A stretch of 64,000 nucleotides of DNA from Bacteroidota bacterium (GTDB lineage Bacteria > Bacteroidota > Rhodothermia > Rhodothermales > UBA10348). The position numbers were made by a program, and so were the translations under genes. Below are positions 47,661 to 63,916 of the stretch, piece after piece. The stretch lies in the NCBI GenBank assembly GCA_022567305.1, contig JADFHF010000010.1:15830-79829 (forward strand), given 5' to 3'. The stretch's first letter is position 1. Every line of letters starts with the position of its first letter. The notes beneath the pieces were generated by a model that worked only from the letters and a program-made list of their open reading frames with translations, was not told the origin of the DNA and did not search any database.

Positions 47661-50600
47661 CTAGAATCGAGCGCTCAGTTCAAAGCGCGCTGTGTGGATT
47701 ACCTTGCGATCTTCGGGCGCGCGTCCATCATAAGAGATCGTGGCTGTGAGAACGTCGCTGAGATAACTCTGCAGGCTCAGTCGCCAGAGATACGATGTCC
47801 CGGCTCCTCTCCCATCCGTAAGTTCAAAGGCCGTCCGGCCTGCATACTGGCCTCTGAGGTCAACAGACGCTACCTCAAAACGAGCAGCTAGATCAAATTT
47901 TCGCTCCAGCCGGTAACGAGCGTCGATTGGAATACGAACTGTTTTCGCCCTTCCCCCGAGGTTTTGTTCATCTTTCTGACTGATTACAGTTGCCACTGTC
48001 ACAAGAAGGGGTCGAGATGCGTTCCACGTAACGGAAGGCGAAAATCCTGTTGTTACGATGTCATAGTTTCTCGATACAAATGATTCGCTTTTCTGGGCTT
48101 CATTGGAGCGCTCAATCGTCGCTCTCAGACTCCATCTCGGGTGAAAGGTGAGTCGCCCGAATACACGAACGAGATCCGATTGCCTCCGTTCTTCGCCTGC
48201 CGATAATTCGGACAGGCTCCGGGCCGATTGCAAACTCAGATTTAAATCCACCGACCGACTGTTTCTAAAAAAGGAGAACTCTTGTCGGATGCGAAGTCGC
48301 CCGTTCAACGTGTACTCTGAAGATCGAAAAGATCCCAACCGGAGTAGATACACGTCGTTTGGGTCAGGTGTCCTGCTCCGTTCCTCTAGATCGACGACGG
48401 TACTGGATTTCACACCCTTCAAAAATGTCTGCAACGCCGATGCGCCGGATTGGAATAGAGATCCCGGTGAAATTTCCAGGCGAATACGGCCACGAACACC
48501 GGTCGTGGCCTCCAGTGAATCGGATGGAATAAACGTACGAACATAGACTCCTTCGTTTGGAGTCGTTTCCGGAACAAATTCCTCCAGCTGAATGACACCA
48601 TCCTCATTCTCATCCAACCAAACGAATTCTCCCCGCTCCTGTCCTGTGCGGATATAGATTTCTTGCATCGTTGCCGAGCGCTCTGTCTGCGCCTGATAGA
48701 GCCACGTCAGGCTCAATCCGGAGCTCTGCGCTCGCCATTTCCCGTTCCATCTTAGCACGAATGAGTTTTTACTCTGAACCTCGAACGATCCTCCCGGCAA
48801 CGGATTGGAATCCGAGTGGCGAATTCCGACGTGAACGTCTGAGTGGAGTAATCGGCTCGGGTCCAGAGAAAGATTCGACGAGAGCGTCCAGGCATCTACG
48901 GGTCGCCAGGCACCCGAAATATAATAATCAGCCGTGCGTCGTTCGACTTCCATTCGGACGGCATATCCGGCCTGATTCCAACTGACGCCGATTCGCGTTT
49001 CAAGAAACCTCGTTGACGGTGCCACCAGGCTGTCTGTCAATTCACTTCTCTGTTTAAGGTTTTCATGCTCGAACTCCACGAAGGGAATGAGTGAGTTGTT
49101 CATGAACCCTCTGGACAGGCGACCTTGCTGTCTAAACCAGTTCCCGCGTTCAAATACCAGGAAGTTTTCACTGGAAATCGATTCGACGCGATAGTCAAGC
49201 CGTGGCAATTGCCCTTCAGACATCCGAATGCGTCCATCCCATCGTTTCCCCTCAAACGACGACCCTAGAACAAGCGCACCGTAGCCCGTTTCAACGAACG
49301 AAGAGTCCGACCACGAATATCGTGTCGAAAACTCATCCAATCGTTCATCACCTGCGCCTAGTATACCTCCAGTGGCGTCAACTTCCAGGTTCTGAATGTT
49401 CCACTGACGCGCAAATTCTATCGGTCTAATGCGCTCAAAGGATGAAAACCAGGCGTCCCGGAATCGCCTTGTATATGCGGCGGAGAACACACCCAGCGTT
49501 TGACTCCCTAGACGAAGCCGGGTTGGATGCACCGTTACACCAAAATGATAGGCGCTGCCTGCGTCGTCGGCGGCGTCGGCGCCCGAGAGTCTGTTCAGAT
49601 CGTTAATCGACGATGCCCATTCCCCCAAAAGGCTCAGGATGGGTGATGGATTGAGTGTAGCGCGAACGTCGAACACCTGCTTCAGAGTCGGTTTCGGGAG
49701 CAGCCGGACAGGCTCATACTCTCCATTACCCGCACCCACATGTCGATACGCAATCCCATTTGAAACCAATCCTGTGCGTTCGTAGCTCCCTTTACCAACT
49801 CCTAACCTGGAGAAGGATACCCGAAATACCTGTACCGAATCGGCGGGAGCGGTCGTGATCACGACAAAAATGGGTGCCTCGCCGTTGAGCGGATCGATGA
49901 AGACATCTACGACATACTGAGTGAAAAGCGCCTCTGGATCATACACGACCCGAACCGCCCCGCTACTGAACGCATCGGTATCCCCCGACAGGACAATGGA
50001 AAGTGAATCGGCAGGAGTCAATCCGAACTCTTGGCCGAACTGATCTCCATCCGCCTCTCTGACGATGCTTCCCCCTATCGAAAAAAGAGGATTCCCGTTT
50101 GAAATACGTCCGAATCCGGTATCGAAATCTGCCGCCAGAAGTGTTCTCGTGAATTGCTGTGTGGAATACTGAAATTCGACTGAGATTCGACGATCAGATG
50201 TCACGATTCGAGTCGGGGAAAACGTCAGTTCTCCCGTTGCATAGTCCACTACATAGTCGTTTAGCTCTCCGCGGTCGAGTCGATTTCCATCGAGGTAAAC
50301 AACTTCTGACCCGGGTATGACGATGATAAAACGTTCACCGTTATTGCCCTCGAGGCGGTACGGACCCTGCACACCGTCTATGGGTTGAATTTCCTGGACT
50401 CTGAAAATCCCTCGGGACGTTGCGCCGGCTATTGAGAACGAGCCGCCTCGAAAGAGGCCTTCCGACTTAGGCGCGATCTTTCCAAAGGCGGTGACACCCT
50501 GGAGTTTGCGCCTGAGCTGGGCGTACTCTCCTCCGCTGATCCGGCTGTCAAAATCTCCCAGTTGAACAGAACCGGACGACGTTCGGAGTTCGATAAAGAC

Positions 50601-51203
50601 ACGATCGAATTCGTTGATCCGTTGTGTTGAGCCCTCTGGTAAGATGGGCGTGTCTTCGTCGGTTAGAGCTGCGCGTAAGTTCAATCCATCGGTGATCGGA
50701 CCCTCCACTTGCAATCGGAGACCGGACTCGATGGCTACGTCTCGTCCGGTACCCGAAGTAATTCCTCTAGTGATCGATCCACTCCGTCGAAGCTGAGACG
50801 AGCTTGCGTACGTCGCATCTCTGCCCGGTGTTTTGGAATGATCACGGCGACCGTTGTTTACAGAGCGGTCTCCCCGCCTCTTCAACGGCCATTTTCTCAG
50901 CGATCCCGTGAGGGAAATTGGGATATACTCGTACGAAATAATCATCAATCCAGGCTCCTCCGGATTTCGGTCGAGTAATTCCACGAAACCTGTTCGATAG
51001 TTTATCAGGTAAGCTTCTTTCCCAAGAACCTGATCATCGATGAAAACGGTTTCCGAACCCGGTGAGATAAATGGTCGGATCAGGAACGGTCCATTACCGG
51101 AAATGGCAAGGGTGTCAGCCTGTGAAGGGAGGTGTTCTTTCGCTCTTTCCTGAGCATGGCCAAGCGATACCAAAAAGATAGCGGAGAGCAGGTGCAGGCT
51201 CAT
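47661..51203 (-). CDS. Large hypothetical outer-membrane protein (about 1180 aa)
   Basis: Signal-peptide-like MSLHLLSAIFLVSLGHAQ, many amphipathic beta-strands, C-terminal Phe (ARFELSARF). The ORF-track start at 51371 overlaps the divergent ORF-track gene. Confidence 0.75.
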   Translation of the reverse strand: MSLHLLSAIFLVSLGHAQERAKEHLPSQADTLAISGNGPFLIRPFISPGSETVFIDDQVLGKEAYLINYRTGFVELLDRNPEEPGLMIISYEYIPISLTGSLRKWPLKRRGDRSVNNGRRDHSKTPGRDATYASSSQLRRSGSITRGITSGTGRDVAIESGLRLQVEGPITDGLNLRAALTDEDTPILPEGSTQRINEFDRVFIELRTSSGSVQLGDFDSRISGGEYAQLRRKLQGVTAFGKIAPKSEGLFRGGSFSIAGATSRGIFRVQEIQPIDGVQGPYRLEGNNGERFIIVIPGSEVVYLDGNRLDRGELNDYVVDYATGELTFSPTRIVTSDRRISVEFQYSTQQFTRTLLAADFDTGFGRISNGNPLFSIGGSIVREADGDQFGQEFGLTPADSLSIVLSGDTDAFSSGAVRVVYDPEALFTQYVVDVFIDPLNGEAPIFVVITTAPADSVQVFRVSFSRLGVGKGSYERTGLVSNGIAYRHVGAGNGEYEPVRLLPKPTLKQVFDVRATLNPSPILSLLGEWASSINDLNRLSGADAADDAGSAYHFGVTVHPTRLRLGSQTLGVFSAAYTRRFRDAWFSSFERIRPIEFARQWNIQNLEVDATGGILGAGDERLDEFSTRYSWSDSSFVETGYGALVLGSSFEGKRWDGRIRMSEGQLPRLDYRVESISSENFLVFERGNWFRQQGRLSRGFMNNSLIPFVEFEHENLKQRSELTDSLVAPSTRFLETRIGVSWNQAGYAVRMEVERRTADYYISGAWRPVDAWTLSSNLSLDPSRLLHSDVHVGIRHSDSNPLPGGSFEVQSKNSFVLRWNGKWRAQSSGLSLTWLYQAQTERSATMQEIYIRTGQERGEFVWLDENEDGVIQLEEFVPETTPNEGVYVRTFIPSDSLEATTGVRGRIRLEISPGSLFQSGASALQTFLKGVKSSTVVDLEERSRTPDPNDVYLLRLGSFRSSEYTLNGRLRIRQEFSFFRNSRSVDLNLSLQSARSLSELSAGEERRQSDLVRVFGRLTFHPRWSLRATIERSNEAQKSESFVSRNYDIVTTGFSPSVTWNASRPLLVTVATVISQKDEQNLGGRAKTVRIPIDARYRLERKFDLAARFEVASVDLRGQYAGRTAFELTDGRGAGTSYLWRLSLQSYLSDVLTATISYDGRAPEDRKVIHTARFELSARF

Positions 51204-51496
51204 CCGGAGAACAACTCTGACCAATAATGACGTGATAAGTGTGGGGCTGTCGATCAAACTAACTGGATCTATGTGTGTTGGTGGGTTTAATCTTCCCCTC
51301 ACCGAGCTCATCTTTGCGAATACTAATCGACTCCGTATGTGTTCTGAAGGGAGAGCCTCATCCGGATACAACGGATTTCATACGATCTCTCCAAAAAACT
51401 GCAGATCTCCCATTAGGTTGCCAGCCGAAAGATTGGAGTATAATTTCCTCTCGCGCAAGTCTTTTCTTCGTACGACTTTCAGATTCATATAGGCCC

Positions 51497-58945: not shown

Positions 58946-61900
58946 CTAGACGCCGATTTCGGTGTTAGATCCCATTTCATCGTCGTCGTTCGACTCCACG
59001 AAATGGAAGGGCGGCCATGGACCCGACTTTTCGAATACGATGCCGAGTGCCTTGTATTCTGTAGCGAGTCGCTCAATGCTGTTGCCGAATTGCCGTTCCA
59101 TGGAAATCGGTACCAGGTAGGCGGCATTCATGATCAGAGTGCGACCCTCTTCGTCCGTCTGGTTGGGTACGTCCTTAAATGTACCCTCCGAGGATAACTC
59201 GAGAAACGTATTGTGTGCTCGGTCGATACAGGTTTCGAGCAAGCTCTGTTCGATTCCAGACGTTTCCGAGGAATCGTTGTTACTCAGAATGTTTTTGAGA
59301 ACTTGAGAAACACCACTCGGCATCCCTTCGATAGATTCGTCTATTTGGCGGTCGCTCGCCGAAATCGCGTCTTTCAATTTCTTTGTGTCGCATAAGACGC
59401 GAACCCCGAATTCTGACTTCCCGTGAAGCCGCTCCAACATTTTTTCAAAATGCTGTTGCCGTTCAGTGATCAGCTCCACGATCGCGTGTTCCGAGTCGCA
59501 ACTGATTCCAAATAGAATGGGTACCAGTGTCGCATCCTTTTTAATTTCGAATAGAACAGCGGCATGTCGACGAACCTTGTCCTTGAGCCAGTTCGTATCT
59601 CTCATGCTCTCTTCGATCGCATGCGTCCCAAACGAATGGCTATCTTCCAGACTCACAATCGCACTGAGTTGACCACCGTTCAAAACGAATACTTTGGAAG
59701 AGTCGGTCATTCCGGACAGGATTTCAGTATCGATGATGCCAGCGCTTTCCGCTGACGTGATTCCATACACGTAATAAACCTGGCCTACATCCGGACTTGA
59801 CGAGACCGTAAGGCTGGGTGCGTTCCCCACCGTAGACCCATCCCCCATCGGCGAATCGCTGGCAATTGCGTCTCTCACGTCCGGATCGGTATCCCACGAG
59901 TCCGCATCGCTTTTTTCAAAAGTGAAACTGGGGCCCGGGCCGGCATCTCCTGCATCAGAAGAATCCGTCAAATCATCCGTCGAGCCGGATTCTTCCGAAG
60001 GATGAGCCGATTCGTCTTCTTGTTCCTGACTTGACTCAGTCTCTGATTCAGAACCTTCATCCGGATTCGCTTCGGAATTCGACTCTGATTCTTCATCAGA
60101 ACCGAGATCCGCGAGCGTCTTCCATTCGGATTCAACGCTTTCGGTCGAATTCAATTCTGATTCATGCGGCTCGTCGATCTCCGTCTCAGATGAGACCGTA
60201 TCAGTGTCGGACACCGTACTCTCCCGGGTACTTTTCGAGGTGAGCGTGTTTAGGACATCTGAGAAAAATGCCTGCTCTGCAGACTCATCCCCATCCTTCG
60301 ATCCTGCGGAGAGCGCTTTTAGAGCTTCCTGGAACAGTCGCTCGGTCATTTTCTCACGAACAATTTTACTCGCTGACCGCAATACGGTGTGCTCTGAATC
60401 AATTCGATCGATGACATCCGATGCCGTTGCATCAGCGTCGCTCAAGCAATCAATGGATTGGTTCAATATTTCTGAGATCAACATCTCTTTCAGGCTTTCG
60501 ACTGCTGCCTGAACGGGTTCTGAGTCGTCTGGCAGACGTTCCATAGACTCCCTGGCGACCTCGGACGGAGATCCTAATTGATCCACTCCGGCCTTGGCAA
60601 TTTCTGAGACGAGCATTTCTCTCAGCACGGCAACAACCTGGTCGATCTGGGCCTCATCGTCTCCAATGTGAGCCCGAGCCTCGGTGGCAGCAATGTAATT
60701 GTCACTCAGCTCGTTCAATGCACTCGATGCCGTTTCTTTCAACAGGGTTTCCTTCAAACGGCTCGCGATCGCTCGCATCTGATCGTTTTCATCATCCACA
60801 AAGGAGCGGGCTTTCTCAGATGATTTTTCCACATCGTTCAATCGGCGTTTCGCCTCTTCTGAGACTTCTGAAAGCAATTGGGTCTCCAGTGCATCTGCAG
60901 CCTGTTCTACTTCAGGCAATGAGGGGCGAAGCATCAGTCGAGCCTTTGAAGACGTTACGTGCTTGTCTGCAAGACGCTCTTTTGAGGCCTGAGCGACTTC
61001 TTCAGTCAGGCGCCGTGTTGCCTCGTCAATTGCACGAGCAAAAACGTCGCTGTCTGTCGGAATACTGGAAGCTGCGGCGGATGCAACCTGCTCGACGTCC
61101 TCTAAACGCTCGACCATCAGCGCAGTGATCTTCTCTACCATCTTCTGGTTCGAAGCCAATAAGGCCTTCTGCACGTATTCGCTCTGGGTCTCAAATGCGC
61201 GCTCTACCGAGTCTGCGATCTTGCTGGAATCTGAAAGTTCAGATAGAACACGATTCGAAATCTTTTCTGTTACTTTTTGGCGGACAAGCTCAGATGCCTT
61301 CTTAAAATTTGGATGCTCGTTCGTCACGTACGACATCGCCTCGACGCTCGCTTTATCGGCGTCCGAAAGCTCTGCTAACACGGAGGCGGCGACATCCTGC
61401 AGCACTTTATTGCGCAGCACAGCATTGGCGGCAATCAATACGTCATGGTCATGTTCGATATGCAGCCTTGCTTCACCAACGATCTCTTCGAAGTTATCCA
61501 GACTGTTCAGCGCGTCTTGAGCGACCTTCTCGATCAGCAGTTTTCGAACATGTGAGGATGACTCTTCAAGAAGTGAGGTTTTCTGCATCACTTCTGCAGA
61601 CGCTTCATCGACGAACTCAGACGAGTCGTTTATTTGACGCTCTGTCTGCTGAGCTACCATCTCACGCAACTGCGTTTGCGTTTTCGAAACCGCCTGATCA
61701 AACCAGCTACCCGAACTAACGAATTTAGCGAGTGCAGTGGCCTGCAATTCTTCAACGGTATCGATGGACTCTCGTACTCTGGATTCAATCCGAGAAATCA
61801 GACGATCGTGCCACGTAGCTCTTGCTTCTTCGGTTAATTCAGTCAGCCGATCTTCATCGAATTTCAGGTTCGAGACGACTTCTTCGGTGACGTCATATTC

Positions 61901-63916
61901 AGAATCCGACGATTCGGACAGTCGACGTGTGAGCTCCTGACGAATCCGATTCCGCATGAGCTGTTTACCGAGTTCGATGCCATCTTCCACTTCAATAGGC
62001 GCTGAGTTGGCAATTTCGGCCGCCATTTCTTCAGCATCCAGATTGGCTTTACTCAGTTCAGATTCGATCCTGGTTCTCATTCTGGTAACGAGAATTGGAA
62101 TCGCATCTTCTATACTGTCACCGGTTTCGAGGGGTAACCTGTTTGCGATTTCCTCGGCCATGGCATGGGTATCGAATTCAACACCGGCCAGTTTTTGAGA
62201 GACTTGTTTGCGCGTGCGGGATTCGAGTATCTCCATGGCGCTCTCAATTCGGTCCGAAATCTCGATCGGTGCATCGATCGCCAACTCACGTCCGATAGCA
62301 TCCAGATCCAGTTCAGCCGAATAAATTTTCTCCTTAACGATATCCTTCGTTCGCGCCCGAAGGATCGACATGGCTTCTTCCAAATTGGAATCGATCTCAA
62401 TTTCAATTCTGCGGGCAATCTCCTCAGCCATGGCCTCGGAGCCGACGTCGATAACCGAAAGTTCCTTGACCAAGAGGTCATGCATCCTGGATTTCAAGAT
62501 GGAAGCGGCCGCATCAGCGTCGAAGTCGGCCTGTATGGGCATTTTCTGGGCGACTTCTTCAGAAATCGGCTGAGCATCAATCGAGATCTGCTCGAGCTGA
62601 TCGCGCACATCCTGATAAACTCTGTCCTCGAGAATCGACTGGGCATTTTCAGAATCGAATTCAGGATTTACGTCAATATTGTACGCGAGGTCTTCTGCAA
62701 TCGAATTGGTGTCAATCTTGATTTTGATCAGTTTCTTCTGAATCTCCGCCTGAATTCTGTTGGTCAGGATATTTTCTGCGGTTGCCAAATCGGCCTCGAC
62801 CTCAACGGGCATGCTCTTGGCCACATCTGCTGTTAACTCAGCAGCGTTCAGTTCCAAGCTTTCGAGGTGATTCCGAACTTTCTTTCTGAGCCGAGACTTG
62901 AATAATTCTTCGGCTCCCGAAAGGTCATACTTGCGATTCAATTTCATTGAGGAAGCCACGTCTGCAGCAACGCCCTCACCGTCGATAGATACCTGTTTCA
63001 GTTGCTCGTGGATCTGATCCCGGGTTCTTGAGATTAGGCGGTCGGTTGCGTCTCCTAAATCAACATCCGCATCCAGCTCCATGGACTGGGCGACTTCAGA
63101 CGCAATAGCGGCTGTGTCAAGTTCAATTTCAGACAATTCGCGTTCGATCCTTTCTTTGAGGCGCGCATTGATTACCTCCATAGCCAAGCTGACATCCGAT
63201 ACAACTGTCGTATTGGATGCCAGGTCGTTCACGAGTGACGCGGAATCAATCTCTATCTTTTCAAGTCGCTCAGAGATCTTCTGGTACATTTGCGTCTCAA
63301 TCTCTTTGACAGCGATCTCCAGATCCCGTGAAACGTCAACGTCCGTGTTGGAGAGTACCTCTTGAACAAGATTAGATGTGTCTATCTCTATGTTAGACAG
63401 CTTGTTTGATGCTATTTCTCGCGTTCTACTTTCGAGGATCGAATGGGCCTCTGTAAGATGTTCGTCGATGTTTATTGAAACGGATTCGGCCAATTCTCGA
63501 ACGATGGCACCGGAATCGTCAGCCATTTCAGACAGCTTAGATTCGATGATTTCAACGACGCGTGAATGAACTTCTTGCTCGACGCATGCACCCAGTTCTT
63601 TAAGAGCATCCCCTTCTGAAAGTGCTTTCAGCACGATGGGATTCACCGCCGCTTCGAGTTCGCTGAAAGGCGGCATCACCTGTCGAGCCAGCTGCCCGAG
63701 AATACGTTCACGGAGCTTCTCGGGAATTCCCTTCCCATCTGAATCCAGCTCGATTTCGTCTAAGCGCGTGGCTAGCTCTGCGTCCTCCAGTGACGCGAGC
63801 TCAGTAGTTGCTTGCTTTATGATTGACCGGAAGATTTGTTGTTTAACATTCTCCTTTAAATGGGCAATCTTGTTTTCATCATTTCTGTGAGGCATAGCCT
63901 TGTGATGCCAAAGCAT
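58946..63916 (-). CDS. Giant helical-repeat protein with a C-terminal GvpL/GvpF gas-vesicle domain
   Basis: 1656-aa open frame. The last ~270 aa carry GvpL/F hallmarks: YYVYGI, LSAIVS, DTNWLKDKVRRHAAVL, LVPILFG, LERLHGKSEFGVRV, IMNAAYLV, SGPWPPFHFV. Start is at 63916 or 63895. Confidence 0.85.
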   Translation of the reverse strand: MLWHHKAMPHRNDENKIAHLKENVKQQIFRSIIKQATTELASLEDAELATRLDEIELDSDGKGIPEKLRERILGQLARQVMPPFSELEAAVNPIVLKALSEGDALKELGACVEQEVHSRVVEIIESKLSEMADDSGAIVRELAESVSINIDEHLTEAHSILESRTREIASNKLSNIEIDTSNLVQEVLSNTDVDVSRDLEIAVKEIETQMYQKISERLEKIEIDSASLVNDLASNTTVVSDVSLAMEVINARLKERIERELSEIELDTAAIASEVAQSMELDADVDLGDATDRLISRTRDQIHEQLKQVSIDGEGVAADVASSMKLNRKYDLSGAEELFKSRLRKKVRNHLESLELNAAELTADVAKSMPVEVEADLATAENILTNRIQAEIQKKLIKIKIDTNSIAEDLAYNIDVNPEFDSENAQSILEDRVYQDVRDQLEQISIDAQPISEEVAQKMPIQADFDADAAASILKSRMHDLLVKELSVIDVGSEAMAEEIARRIEIEIDSNLEEAMSILRARTKDIVKEKIYSAELDLDAIGRELAIDAPIEISDRIESAMEILESRTRKQVSQKLAGVEFDTHAMAEEIANRLPLETGDSIEDAIPILVTRMRTRIESELSKANLDAEEMAAEIANSAPIEVEDGIELGKQLMRNRIRQELTRRLSESSDSEYDVTEEVVSNLKFDEDRLTELTEEARATWHDRLISRIESRVRESIDTVEELQATALAKFVSSGSWFDQAVSKTQTQLREMVAQQTERQINDSSEFVDEASAEVMQKTSLLEESSSHVRKLLIEKVAQDALNSLDNFEEIVGEARLHIEHDHDVLIAANAVLRNKVLQDVAASVLAELSDADKASVEAMSYVTNEHPNFKKASELVRQKVTEKISNRVLSELSDSSKIADSVERAFETQSEYVQKALLASNQKMVEKITALMVERLEDVEQVASAAASSIPTDSDVFARAIDEATRRLTEEVAQASKERLADKHVTSSKARLMLRPSLPEVEQAADALETQLLSEVSEEAKRRLNDVEKSSEKARSFVDDENDQMRAIASRLKETLLKETASSALNELSDNYIAATEARAHIGDDEAQIDQVVAVLREMLVSEIAKAGVDQLGSPSEVARESMERLPDDSEPVQAAVESLKEMLISEILNQSIDCLSDADATASDVIDRIDSEHTVLRSASKIVREKMTERLFQEALKALSAGSKDGDESAEQAFFSDVLNTLTSKSTRESTVSDTDTVSSETEIDEPHESELNSTESVESEWKTLADLGSDEESESNSEANPDEGSESETESSQEQEDESAHPSEESGSTDDLTDSSDAGDAGPGPSFTFEKSDADSWDTDPDVRDAIASDSPMGDGSTVGNAPSLTVSSSPDVGQVYYVYGITSAESAGIIDTEILSGMTDSSKVFVLNGGQLSAIVSLEDSHSFGTHAIEESMRDTNWLKDKVRRHAAVLFEIKKDATLVPILFGISCDSEHAIVELITERQQHFEKMLERLHGKSEFGVRVLCDTKKLKDAISASDRQIDESIEGMPSGVSQVLKNILSNNDSSETSGIEQSLLETCIDRAHNTFLELSSEGTFKDVPNQTDEEGRTLIMNAAYLVPISMERQFGNSIERLATEYKALGIVFEKSGPWPPFHFVESNDDDEMGSNTEIGV
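60356..61807 (-). repeat. Protein-level tandem array B: 11 x 44 aa (aa 704-1187)
   Basis: Hand alignment without gaps gives consensus xxLxExVAxxxxxxLSDxxxxAxEAxxxIxxDxxxxxxAxxxLR. Confidence 0.82.
61952..63565 (-). repeat. Protein-level tandem array A: 12 x ~45 aa (aa 118-655)
   Basis: Hand alignment gives consensus SRxRxxIxxxLxxIxIDxxxIAxEIAxxxPIExxxDLExAxxILx; 11 units of 45 aa and one of 43 aa; no obvious DNA-level repeat. Confidence 0.85.

Follow-up and report, generated by a model that had tools for sequence, protein, structure and literature searches.

The stretch of DNA analysed here (the window) comprises 64,000 nucleotides of contig JADFHF010000010.1 from a Bacteroidota bacterium of the order Rhodothermales (GenBank assembly GCA_022567305.1), whose genome, designated G000, is 95.6% complete in 115 contigs. 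Towards one end of the window the minus strand carries a single uninterrupted open reading frame (ORF) encoding a protein of 1656 amino acids (aa), in which two arrays of tandem helical repeats and an acidic linker precede a C-terminal domain of the GvpL/GvpF family (Table 1). GvpF and GvpL are essential for gas-vesicle assembly and, to our knowledge, their domain is otherwise known only from that process; because this bacterium and its relatives are without gas-vesicle genes, the domain seems here to have been recruited for another job.

Table 1. Features of the 1656-aa protein, with their positions in the window
Feature	Position	Strand	Basis or remark
Whole ORF	58946..63916	-	1656 aa, stop codon 58946-58948; spanned by contigs from two other studies
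Conserved N-terminal amphipathic helix motif (aa ~14-45)	63782..63877	-	Shared motif in 25 aligned family proteins (first 130 aa)
Type 1 array, ~13 x 45-aa helical repeat (aa 115-~695)	61832..63574	-	Autocorrelation and HMM iteration
Repeat boundary (aa ~472/473)	62499..62503	-	270 extra bases in contigs of two other studies
Junction segment and ~10 x 44-aa type 2 helical repeat (aa ~750-1190)	60347..61831	-	Family-wide repeat
Repeat-region tail and acidic Ser/Thr-rich linker (aa 1191-1375)	59792..60346	-	Probably disordered, judged from composition only
GvpL/GvpF domain (aa 1381-1641), predicted GvpF fold	58994..59776	-	Pfam, PDB sequence matches, AlphaFold, Foldseek

The C-terminal domain and the repeat arrays

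Residues 1381–1641 match the Pfam profile PF06386 (GvpL_GvpF) over positions 2–245 of its 245, with an E-value of 3.5e-36 and a score of 125.9 bits against a cut-off of 23.6. The original prediction had placed a GvpL/GvpF domain at this end of the protein on the basis of the motifs YYVYGI, W...H, GKSEFGVRV, NAAYLV and SGPWPPFHF, and had proposed that the assignment be checked by a Pfam profile and by comparing a predicted structure with solved GvpF. The motifs are present in the translation, and both comparisons agree with the assignment: the profile match is that given above and, as described below, the predicted model matches both solved GvpF structures. An alignment of 81 domain sequences shows W68, H76, P91, L226, G257 and P258 without exception, and W259 and P260 with a conservation of 90% or more. 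The window protein has every one of these residues, and several of the motifs picked out beforehand thus sit on invariant or near-invariant columns (W68, H76, G257, P258, W259 and P260).

A profile of the 81 sequences retrieved GvpF from the sequences of the PDB (6l5d, E 3.7e-25; 4qsg, E 2e-22), and an AlphaFold model of the domain with the same alignment as input was confident, with a predicted local distance difference test score (pLDDT) of 90.7 and a predicted template modelling score (pTM) of 0.85. Searched with Foldseek, this model found three GvpF chains at the top, 6l5d_A (E 4.1e-12; template modelling scores 0.63/0.74), 4qsg (E 7.7e-12) and 6l5d_B, all with E-values from 4e-12 to 9e-12, the identity to 6l5d_A and 4qsg being 16–20%; the next match followed at E 5e-3. 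These profile matches, together with a confident model that has GvpF as its only significant structural neighbours, argue that the C-terminal domain is a genuine GvpF/L fold. The NCBIfam equivalogs for GvpL (NF045778; 45.9 bits against a cut-off of 200) and GvpF (NF052351; 39.9 bits against 350) are non-discriminating here, as the canonical copies lying within the gvp clusters of two other genomes of the order (G029 and G112) also fall below both cut-offs. The suggestion that the DTNWLKDKVRRH segment is more like GvpL than GvpF was not confirmed, both equivalog scores being far below cut-off and the domain lying in a separate clade.

Upstream of the domain, autocorrelation with BLOSUM scores gave peaks at a lag of 45 (aa 100–690) and of 44 (aa 700–1215). 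Iteration with hidden Markov models (HMMs) resolved the first region into a 45-aa unit, type 1, present 12–13 times, and the second into a 44-aa unit, type 2, present about 10 times, in agreement with the count of about 23 repeats made originally. The types are alike in length and register; a profile–profile comparison of the two (hhalign) gave a weak match, E 0.0069 over 16 columns, that is in register, and a common origin of the two is plausible. Each unit is predicted by AlphaFold to be all-helical, with a long helix and a short helix, in a model of aa 473–1215 that was based on a 23-row alignment and used for secondary structure only.

The repeats and linker gave no credible match to any Pfam profile, GvpC included, even at E <= 10, and no GvpA-like segment was detected by Pfam within the protein down to the same threshold; PADLOC and PHROGs gave no match, and a search of the ESM Atlas with aa 691–1215 gave no usable one. 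When the profile of a second alignment (A2) was compared with PDB sequences it found only GvpF, through the full-length rows, and designed helical bundles at E 0.005–0.03, and nothing bearing on the repeats. Neither repeat type occurs elsewhere in G000. Type 1 is limited to P0001, G001, G002 and P0002, that is, to the genus and its nearest relatives, while type 2 is present in 17 of 21 proteins of relatives, at 5–11 units per protein across the family. Among the 150 homologues listed together with the query, at least one type 2 repeat was found in 29 of the 30 domain proteins of 500 aa or more and in 1 of the 57 of 340–499 aa; type 1 was found only in P0001 and P0002.

The acidity of the repeat region noted originally was also found, aspartate and glutamate making up 20–22% of the repeats and 27% of the linker. 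The latter (aa 1216–1380) contains in addition 31% serine and threonine and only 3% lysine and arginine, a composition from which we judge it to be probably disordered. Net charge per residue is -0.103 for the whole protein against a proteome median of -0.028, and it ranks 26th in acidity among the 2242 ORFs of the genome of at least 200 aa, in a proteome that is itself mildly acidic. Within this otherwise acidic protein the N-terminal helix motif is net basic; the first 30–45 residues form an amphipathic helix that is kept across the family in the alignment of 25 family proteins, with looser versions in short orphan forms of distant families. The idea that this helix is one copy of the 44-aa repeat found little backing, since the repeat profile reached an i-E-value below 0.01 on only 3 of 70 short N-terminal extensions. 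The protein has no hydrophobic segment (the maximum 19-residue Kyte-Doolittle mean is 1.07) and no signal-peptide-like N-terminus and, since it has neither a signal peptide nor a transmembrane segment, we read it as probably cytoplasmic.

Gas-vesicle genes and the distribution of the domain

The 1656-aa ORF is the only match to PF06386 in G000. A profile search of this genome found no GvpA/J/M (PF00741), and phmmer searches of its six-frame translation with three GvpA-family proteins of G029 found nothing at E <= 1; the same queries recovered all three paralogues in a control locus of G112. G029, a member of the same order, served as a positive control and has three GvpA-family genes beside short GvpF/L genes, plus GvpK, GvpN (370.9 bits) and GvpO. 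In G000, G002, G006 and G019 there was no GvpK, no GvpO and no true GvpN, the last being represented only by generic matches of about 26 bits against a cut-off of 266.8. PF00741 was found in none of 35 genomes of the family, 23 of which are at least 90% complete; G006 and G019, with 2–3 contigs and 95–96% completeness, are among these negative genomes, and closed genomes exist for other families of the order. As the carrier genomes are without the shell protein and without the other gvp genes, the 1656-aa protein is very probably not a gas-vesicle component and its GvpF/L fold has been exapted.

The relationship between the two profiles was examined in the same 201 genomes of the order and the same 401 genomes of the phylum. 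Within the order, PF06386 was found in 65 genomes and PF00741 in 7, all of them among the 65, so that 58 of the 65 domain-bearing genomes are without GvpA; in each of the 7 a GvpA match lies no more than about 2 kb away from a short GvpF/L frame (<=403 aa). By family, f9, f18, f20, f21 and f26 gave no match to the domain, and those with matches include f1, f3, f5, f16 and f22. In a sample of the class, all 32 positives belong to the order of the window and none of 101 genomes from other orders was positive. In the phylum sample the domain is present in 42 genomes from outside the order, usually in 2–6 clustered genes of 250–340 aa, and 34 of these genomes also have GvpA, compared with 1 of 13 domain genomes inside the order; this frequent co-occurrence outside and its rarity inside make the orphan state characteristic of Rhodothermales. 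Of the 8 exceptions outside the order that lack GvpA, one has masked sequence and the other seven each gave a single weak match. The latter (G355, G424, G487, G535 and G553 of family f40; G415 and G463 of family f65) match PF06386 with E-values of 1e-7 to 1e-18 in frames of 410–584 aa without GvpA, and may be further, more divergent orphan GvpL/F-like proteins.

An exhaustive HMMER search of 1.84 billion representatives, with the 281-aa domain as query, yielded 3142 matches at E <= 1e-3, of which 32 reached E <= 1e-30; the best homologues are mostly proteins of 700–1900 aa with the domain at the C-terminus, and a census of longer proteins with the domain profile found at least 5 among 8000 candidates scored. 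The phylogeny was inferred by maximum likelihood from 107 domain sequences, namely all long representatives, every third of the others and copies derived from the loci that cover at least 180 profile positions. In the resulting tree all 28 long representatives, 22 long orphans and a few short rows, which are probably fragmentary, form a single clade of 56 rows (Shimodaira–Hasegawa-like approximate likelihood ratio test 96). All 7 in-cluster copies of G029 and G112 fall outside this repeat-bearing clade, which also excludes a long-branched pair from f8 and, in families f16 and f13, the shorter orphan forms. In the genomes sampled, the clade is confined to one order, Rhodothermales. Both kinds of copy were found in G039, which has an orphan copy in a 528-aa frame (C61:23020-23793) as well as a short copy (C31:42385-43148) adjoining a borderline GvpA match (25.9 bits, E 8.8e-5); orphan and cluster kinds are thus paralogous lineages that can coexist.

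Extensions of other kinds precede the domain in some shorter proteins. In P0044, P0058, P0084, P0087, P0103 and P0113 (370–450 aa) a helix with the pattern LI.EVR.EAL.E lies about 15–40 residues from the start and may be a second kind of N-terminal extension. In L033 (G036:C1), a 581-aa frame, the stretch before the domain is rich in arginine and tryptophan and basic (22% lysine and arginine), unlike all other extensions; its true start is probably further downstream, near the 'ADVDRLLQEARAEALAALK' helix.

Set beside the known proteins, the C-terminal domain shares PF06386 and the two-lobed alpha+beta fold with the GvpF of Microcystis aeruginosa (4qsg) and of Anabaena sp. PCC 7120 (6l5d). These are stand-alone proteins of about 250 aa that are encoded in gvp clusters and bind GvpA, whereas here the domain is the last 280 of 1656 aa. 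Haloarchaeal GvpL belongs to the same Pfam family, is presumably likewise a protein-binding module and gives the slightly better of the two sub-threshold NCBIfam scores (45.9 bits); however, the partners of GvpL (GvpJ, K, M, G, F and others) are absent here, and the architecture and clade are different. The canonical GvpF/L proteins of the order (G029, G112 and contig 31 of G039) are of the same domain family but are 218–373-aa ORFs present in 2–4 copies beside GvpA, GvpN, GvpO and GvpK, and lie outside the repeat-bearing clade. By profile, fold and conserved residues the 1656-aa protein is a member of the GvpL_GvpF family; by its context it is not a functional gas-vesicle GvpF or GvpL, and it has no relationship to GvpC.

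We found no description in the literature of GvpL/F proteins outside gas-vesicle systems or in Rhodothermales, in a search that left subscription journals largely uncovered, and within the same coverage the novelty suspected in the original prediction holds. What we rate as new is a known domain with a new architecture, in a new clade and in a new cellular context. A relative is publicly annotated as 'GvpL/GvpF family gas vesicle protein [Rhodothermales bacterium]'.

Integrity, conservation and genomic context of the gene

The fusion of the repeats with the GvpL/F domain is real. Contigs of runs X3 and X6, from two other studies, extend from the downstream gene through the whole ORF and so span all junctions, with only point differences besides an insertion of 270 bases; the fusion architecture described in the original prediction is therefore borne out and is not a misassembly. 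The insertion (X3 record 13 and X6 record 15) lies at about position 62,500 of the window and amounts to two 45-aa units in frame, the record coordinates jumping by 266 at 62499-62503. Either the number of repeats varies between populations that are about 99% identical or the assembly of the window collapsed two units. A contig of X10 has a loose end close by, at 62418-62499.

P0002, a protein of 1331 aa from another genome, is collinear with the window protein over the type 2 block, linker and domain (39% identity over about 1300 aa). Of the 41 related genomes searched, 32 have the domain; among the 24 other genomes of the same family it is present in 21, mostly in open frames of 952–1918 aa. 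The stretch is present at half or more of the sampled words in 18 runs, and the 20 rows containing it come from 9 studies, all of them marine-sediment, sediment or marine metagenomes. Compared with the orthologue in G002, which is of the same genus, the ratio of non-synonymous to synonymous substitution rates (dN/dS) is 0.118 for type 1, 0.068 for type 2 and 0.111 for the domain, and rises to 0.252 in the N-terminus and 0.296 in the linker, the least constrained part; with dS at about 1–1.4, near saturation, these values are rough. Repeats and domain are both under purifying selection.

Not every copy is intact. In G018:C3 (L021) the orthologue is split into adjacent same-strand ORFs of 704 aa and 544 aa, and P0009, which is near-identical to the G018 protein, has 1269 aa; the split is a frameshift, a sequencing error or a pseudogene. 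The G005 orthologue has an in-frame TAG.

Downstream of the gene lie a LolC/E-type permease, MoaD, MoaE, PurC, CopA and CopZ; upstream and divergent are an aldehyde dehydrogenase, a diaminopentanoate-dehydrogenase-like gene and a GntR regulator. Neither flank contains a gvp cluster. The order aldehyde dehydrogenase, gene, LolC/E, MoaD and MoaE, PurC is kept in 15 of the 20 loci first examined, and the same order recurs in families f5, f12 and f22 and, for the aldehyde dehydrogenase only, in f8. The whole 20-kb block around the gene is collinear and made up of housekeeping genes. In families f16 and f3 the context is a different housekeeping one, with sdhCAB and a lytic transglycosylase. The gene is accordingly placed as a vertically inherited core gene, single-copy, syntenic and chromosomal. 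A scan of the 104-bp gap before lolC/E, limited for promoters to the sigma-70 consensus, found no terminator and no promoter motif.

In family f3 an orphan GvpL/F frame of about 312 aa (L037; G026:C1:213717-214388) is followed by a gamma-glutamyl cyclotransferase-like (GGACT) gene; a longer ORF in another frame overlaps at this locus. Elsewhere in the window, positions 47661-51371 of the minus strand encode another large unannotated protein of 1236 aa, for which Pfam gave nothing at E <= 0.01.

Possible roles of the protein

The excerpts consulted from two papers describe GvpF as binding the amphipathic/hydrophobic N-terminal part (alpha1) of GvpA, for which a chaperone role has been proposed, and GvpL as interacting with GvpJ, K and S/M and acting as a hub of accessory Gvps (PMC11445434, PMC7688916); according to the excerpts of one of them, the solved GvpF structures did not reveal the mechanism (PMC11445434). 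The explanation that we favour, with a probability of roughly 0.55 for the whole of it, is an exapted GvpF/L binding head on a length-variable acidic helical scaffold that is not part of a gas vesicle. By analogy with GvpF and GvpL the C-terminal domain would be a protein-binding head, with a partner that is probably helical or amphipathic; the repeat array would be an extended, structured and multivalent scaffold that lengthens or shortens as repeat units are gained or lost; and the acidic linker would give reach. We call the scaffold length-variable because the family has 5–11 type 2 units, the type 1 block is genus-specific and near-identical populations differ by two units. In the cytoplasm the whole protein would then serve as a structural scaffold or tether, a role that we put forward only tentatively. 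As its second reading the original prediction had proposed that a GvpL/F fold was co-opted to form the head of such a structure, and this would fit all of the findings.

Several points weigh against this explanation. The role of binding head is drawn by analogy from the GvpF and GvpL of gas vesicles. The AlphaFold model of the repeats is poor in three dimensions (pLDDT 54.6, pTM 0.23), so that the evidence for an extended scaffold consists of secondary structure and periodicity. Gene context was considered as a functional clue and rejected, since the neighbours are housekeeping genes and the whole block is collinear. The absence of GvpA is an observation on draft genomes. The gene was not found in 3 of the 24 family genomes (4 of 24 in the order-wide search) and is thus dispensable in some lineages. 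Secure RNA evidence for the gene was not found either: no RNA run is listed among those containing the stretch, and three short contigs within the gene from run X20, whose metatranscriptomic label is a guess, were not counted as evidence of expression.

A more specific version of the scaffold explanation is head-to-tail self-assembly, in which the GvpF/L domain of one copy binds the N-terminal or repeat helices of other copies to give filaments or a mesh, in the manner of a cytoskeleton. It would account for an N-terminal amphipathic helix that is kept family-wide and is looser in the short orphan forms, for a 44-aa repeat that starts with a similar helix pattern, and for the fact that both repeat types and the N-terminal helix always travel with the domain, the repeats being found nowhere else in the genome; GvpF, in the excerpts cited, likewise binds the N-terminal half/alpha1 of GvpA (PMC11445434, PMC7688916). 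However, with the repeat profile significant on so few of the short N-terminal extensions (3 of 70) the link between the N-terminal helix and the repeats is weak, and no GvpA-like segment was detected in the protein; we regard self-assembly as unlikely. A broader proposal, in which the GvpF/L fold would be a general amphipathic-helix-binding module that in Rhodothermales forms the head of self-polymerising giant acidic repeat proteins, their length tuned by repeat number, serving as a hitherto undescribed bacterial cytoskeletal or organelle-tethering element, is comparably doubtful.

The protein might instead be a holdase or chaperone whose client, unrelated to gas vesicles, is small and hydrophobic or prone to aggregation, and its acidic repeats would serve mainly as a solubilising, charge-repelling tail. 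The chaperone-like role proposed for GvpF towards the hydrophobic part of GvpA (excerpts of PMC11445434) and the extreme acidity of the protein (-0.103 against the median of -0.028) would be consistent with this, but for a tail that only solubilises, a dN/dS of 0.07–0.12 and a 44-aa register kept family-wide would be unexpected, and no conserved small neighbouring gene was seen in the loci examined. We give this possibility a small chance, preferring a binding head on a helical scaffold.

These data contradict the first reading of the original prediction, in which a GvpC-like/GvpL fusion would scaffold or size an unusual gas vesicle. A true GvpL/F domain is joined to tandem helical repeats, as found in GvpC, and real gvp clusters exist in the 7 GvpA-positive genomes among the 201 of the order; but the likeness to GvpC is an analogy only, with a period of 44–45 aa here against 33 aa in GvpC and no match to the GvpC Pfam profile at E <= 10, and GvpA/J/M is missing from G000 and from all 35 family genomes with the controls working, as are GvpK, GvpO, a true GvpN and any gvp neighbours from the genomes and flanks described above, while the canonical cluster copies lie outside the repeat-bearing clade. 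We consider it very improbable. That the gene has no present function, being either the decaying remnant of a gas-vesicle cluster since lost or a chimera of the assembly, might be argued from a domain orphaned from all other gvp genes, the split G018 gene and the in-frame TAG of G005, but is hardly credible given the intact frames in most family genomes, purifying selection on all structured parts, synteny across several families and independent contigs that span all junctions.

A clade of GvpF/L domains under purifying selection in bacteria free of gas vesicles implies that the fold can work without GvpA, and the repeat-bearing clade is a natural system for finding what the GvpF/L fold binds. 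Public annotation under the label 'gas vesicle protein' would mislead, pointing to buoyancy organelles in Rhodothermales of marine sediments. On the reading of the domain as a binding head, the family would also show clearly how a giant repeat array that evolves fast (5 to ~24 units) is carried on a conserved binding domain.

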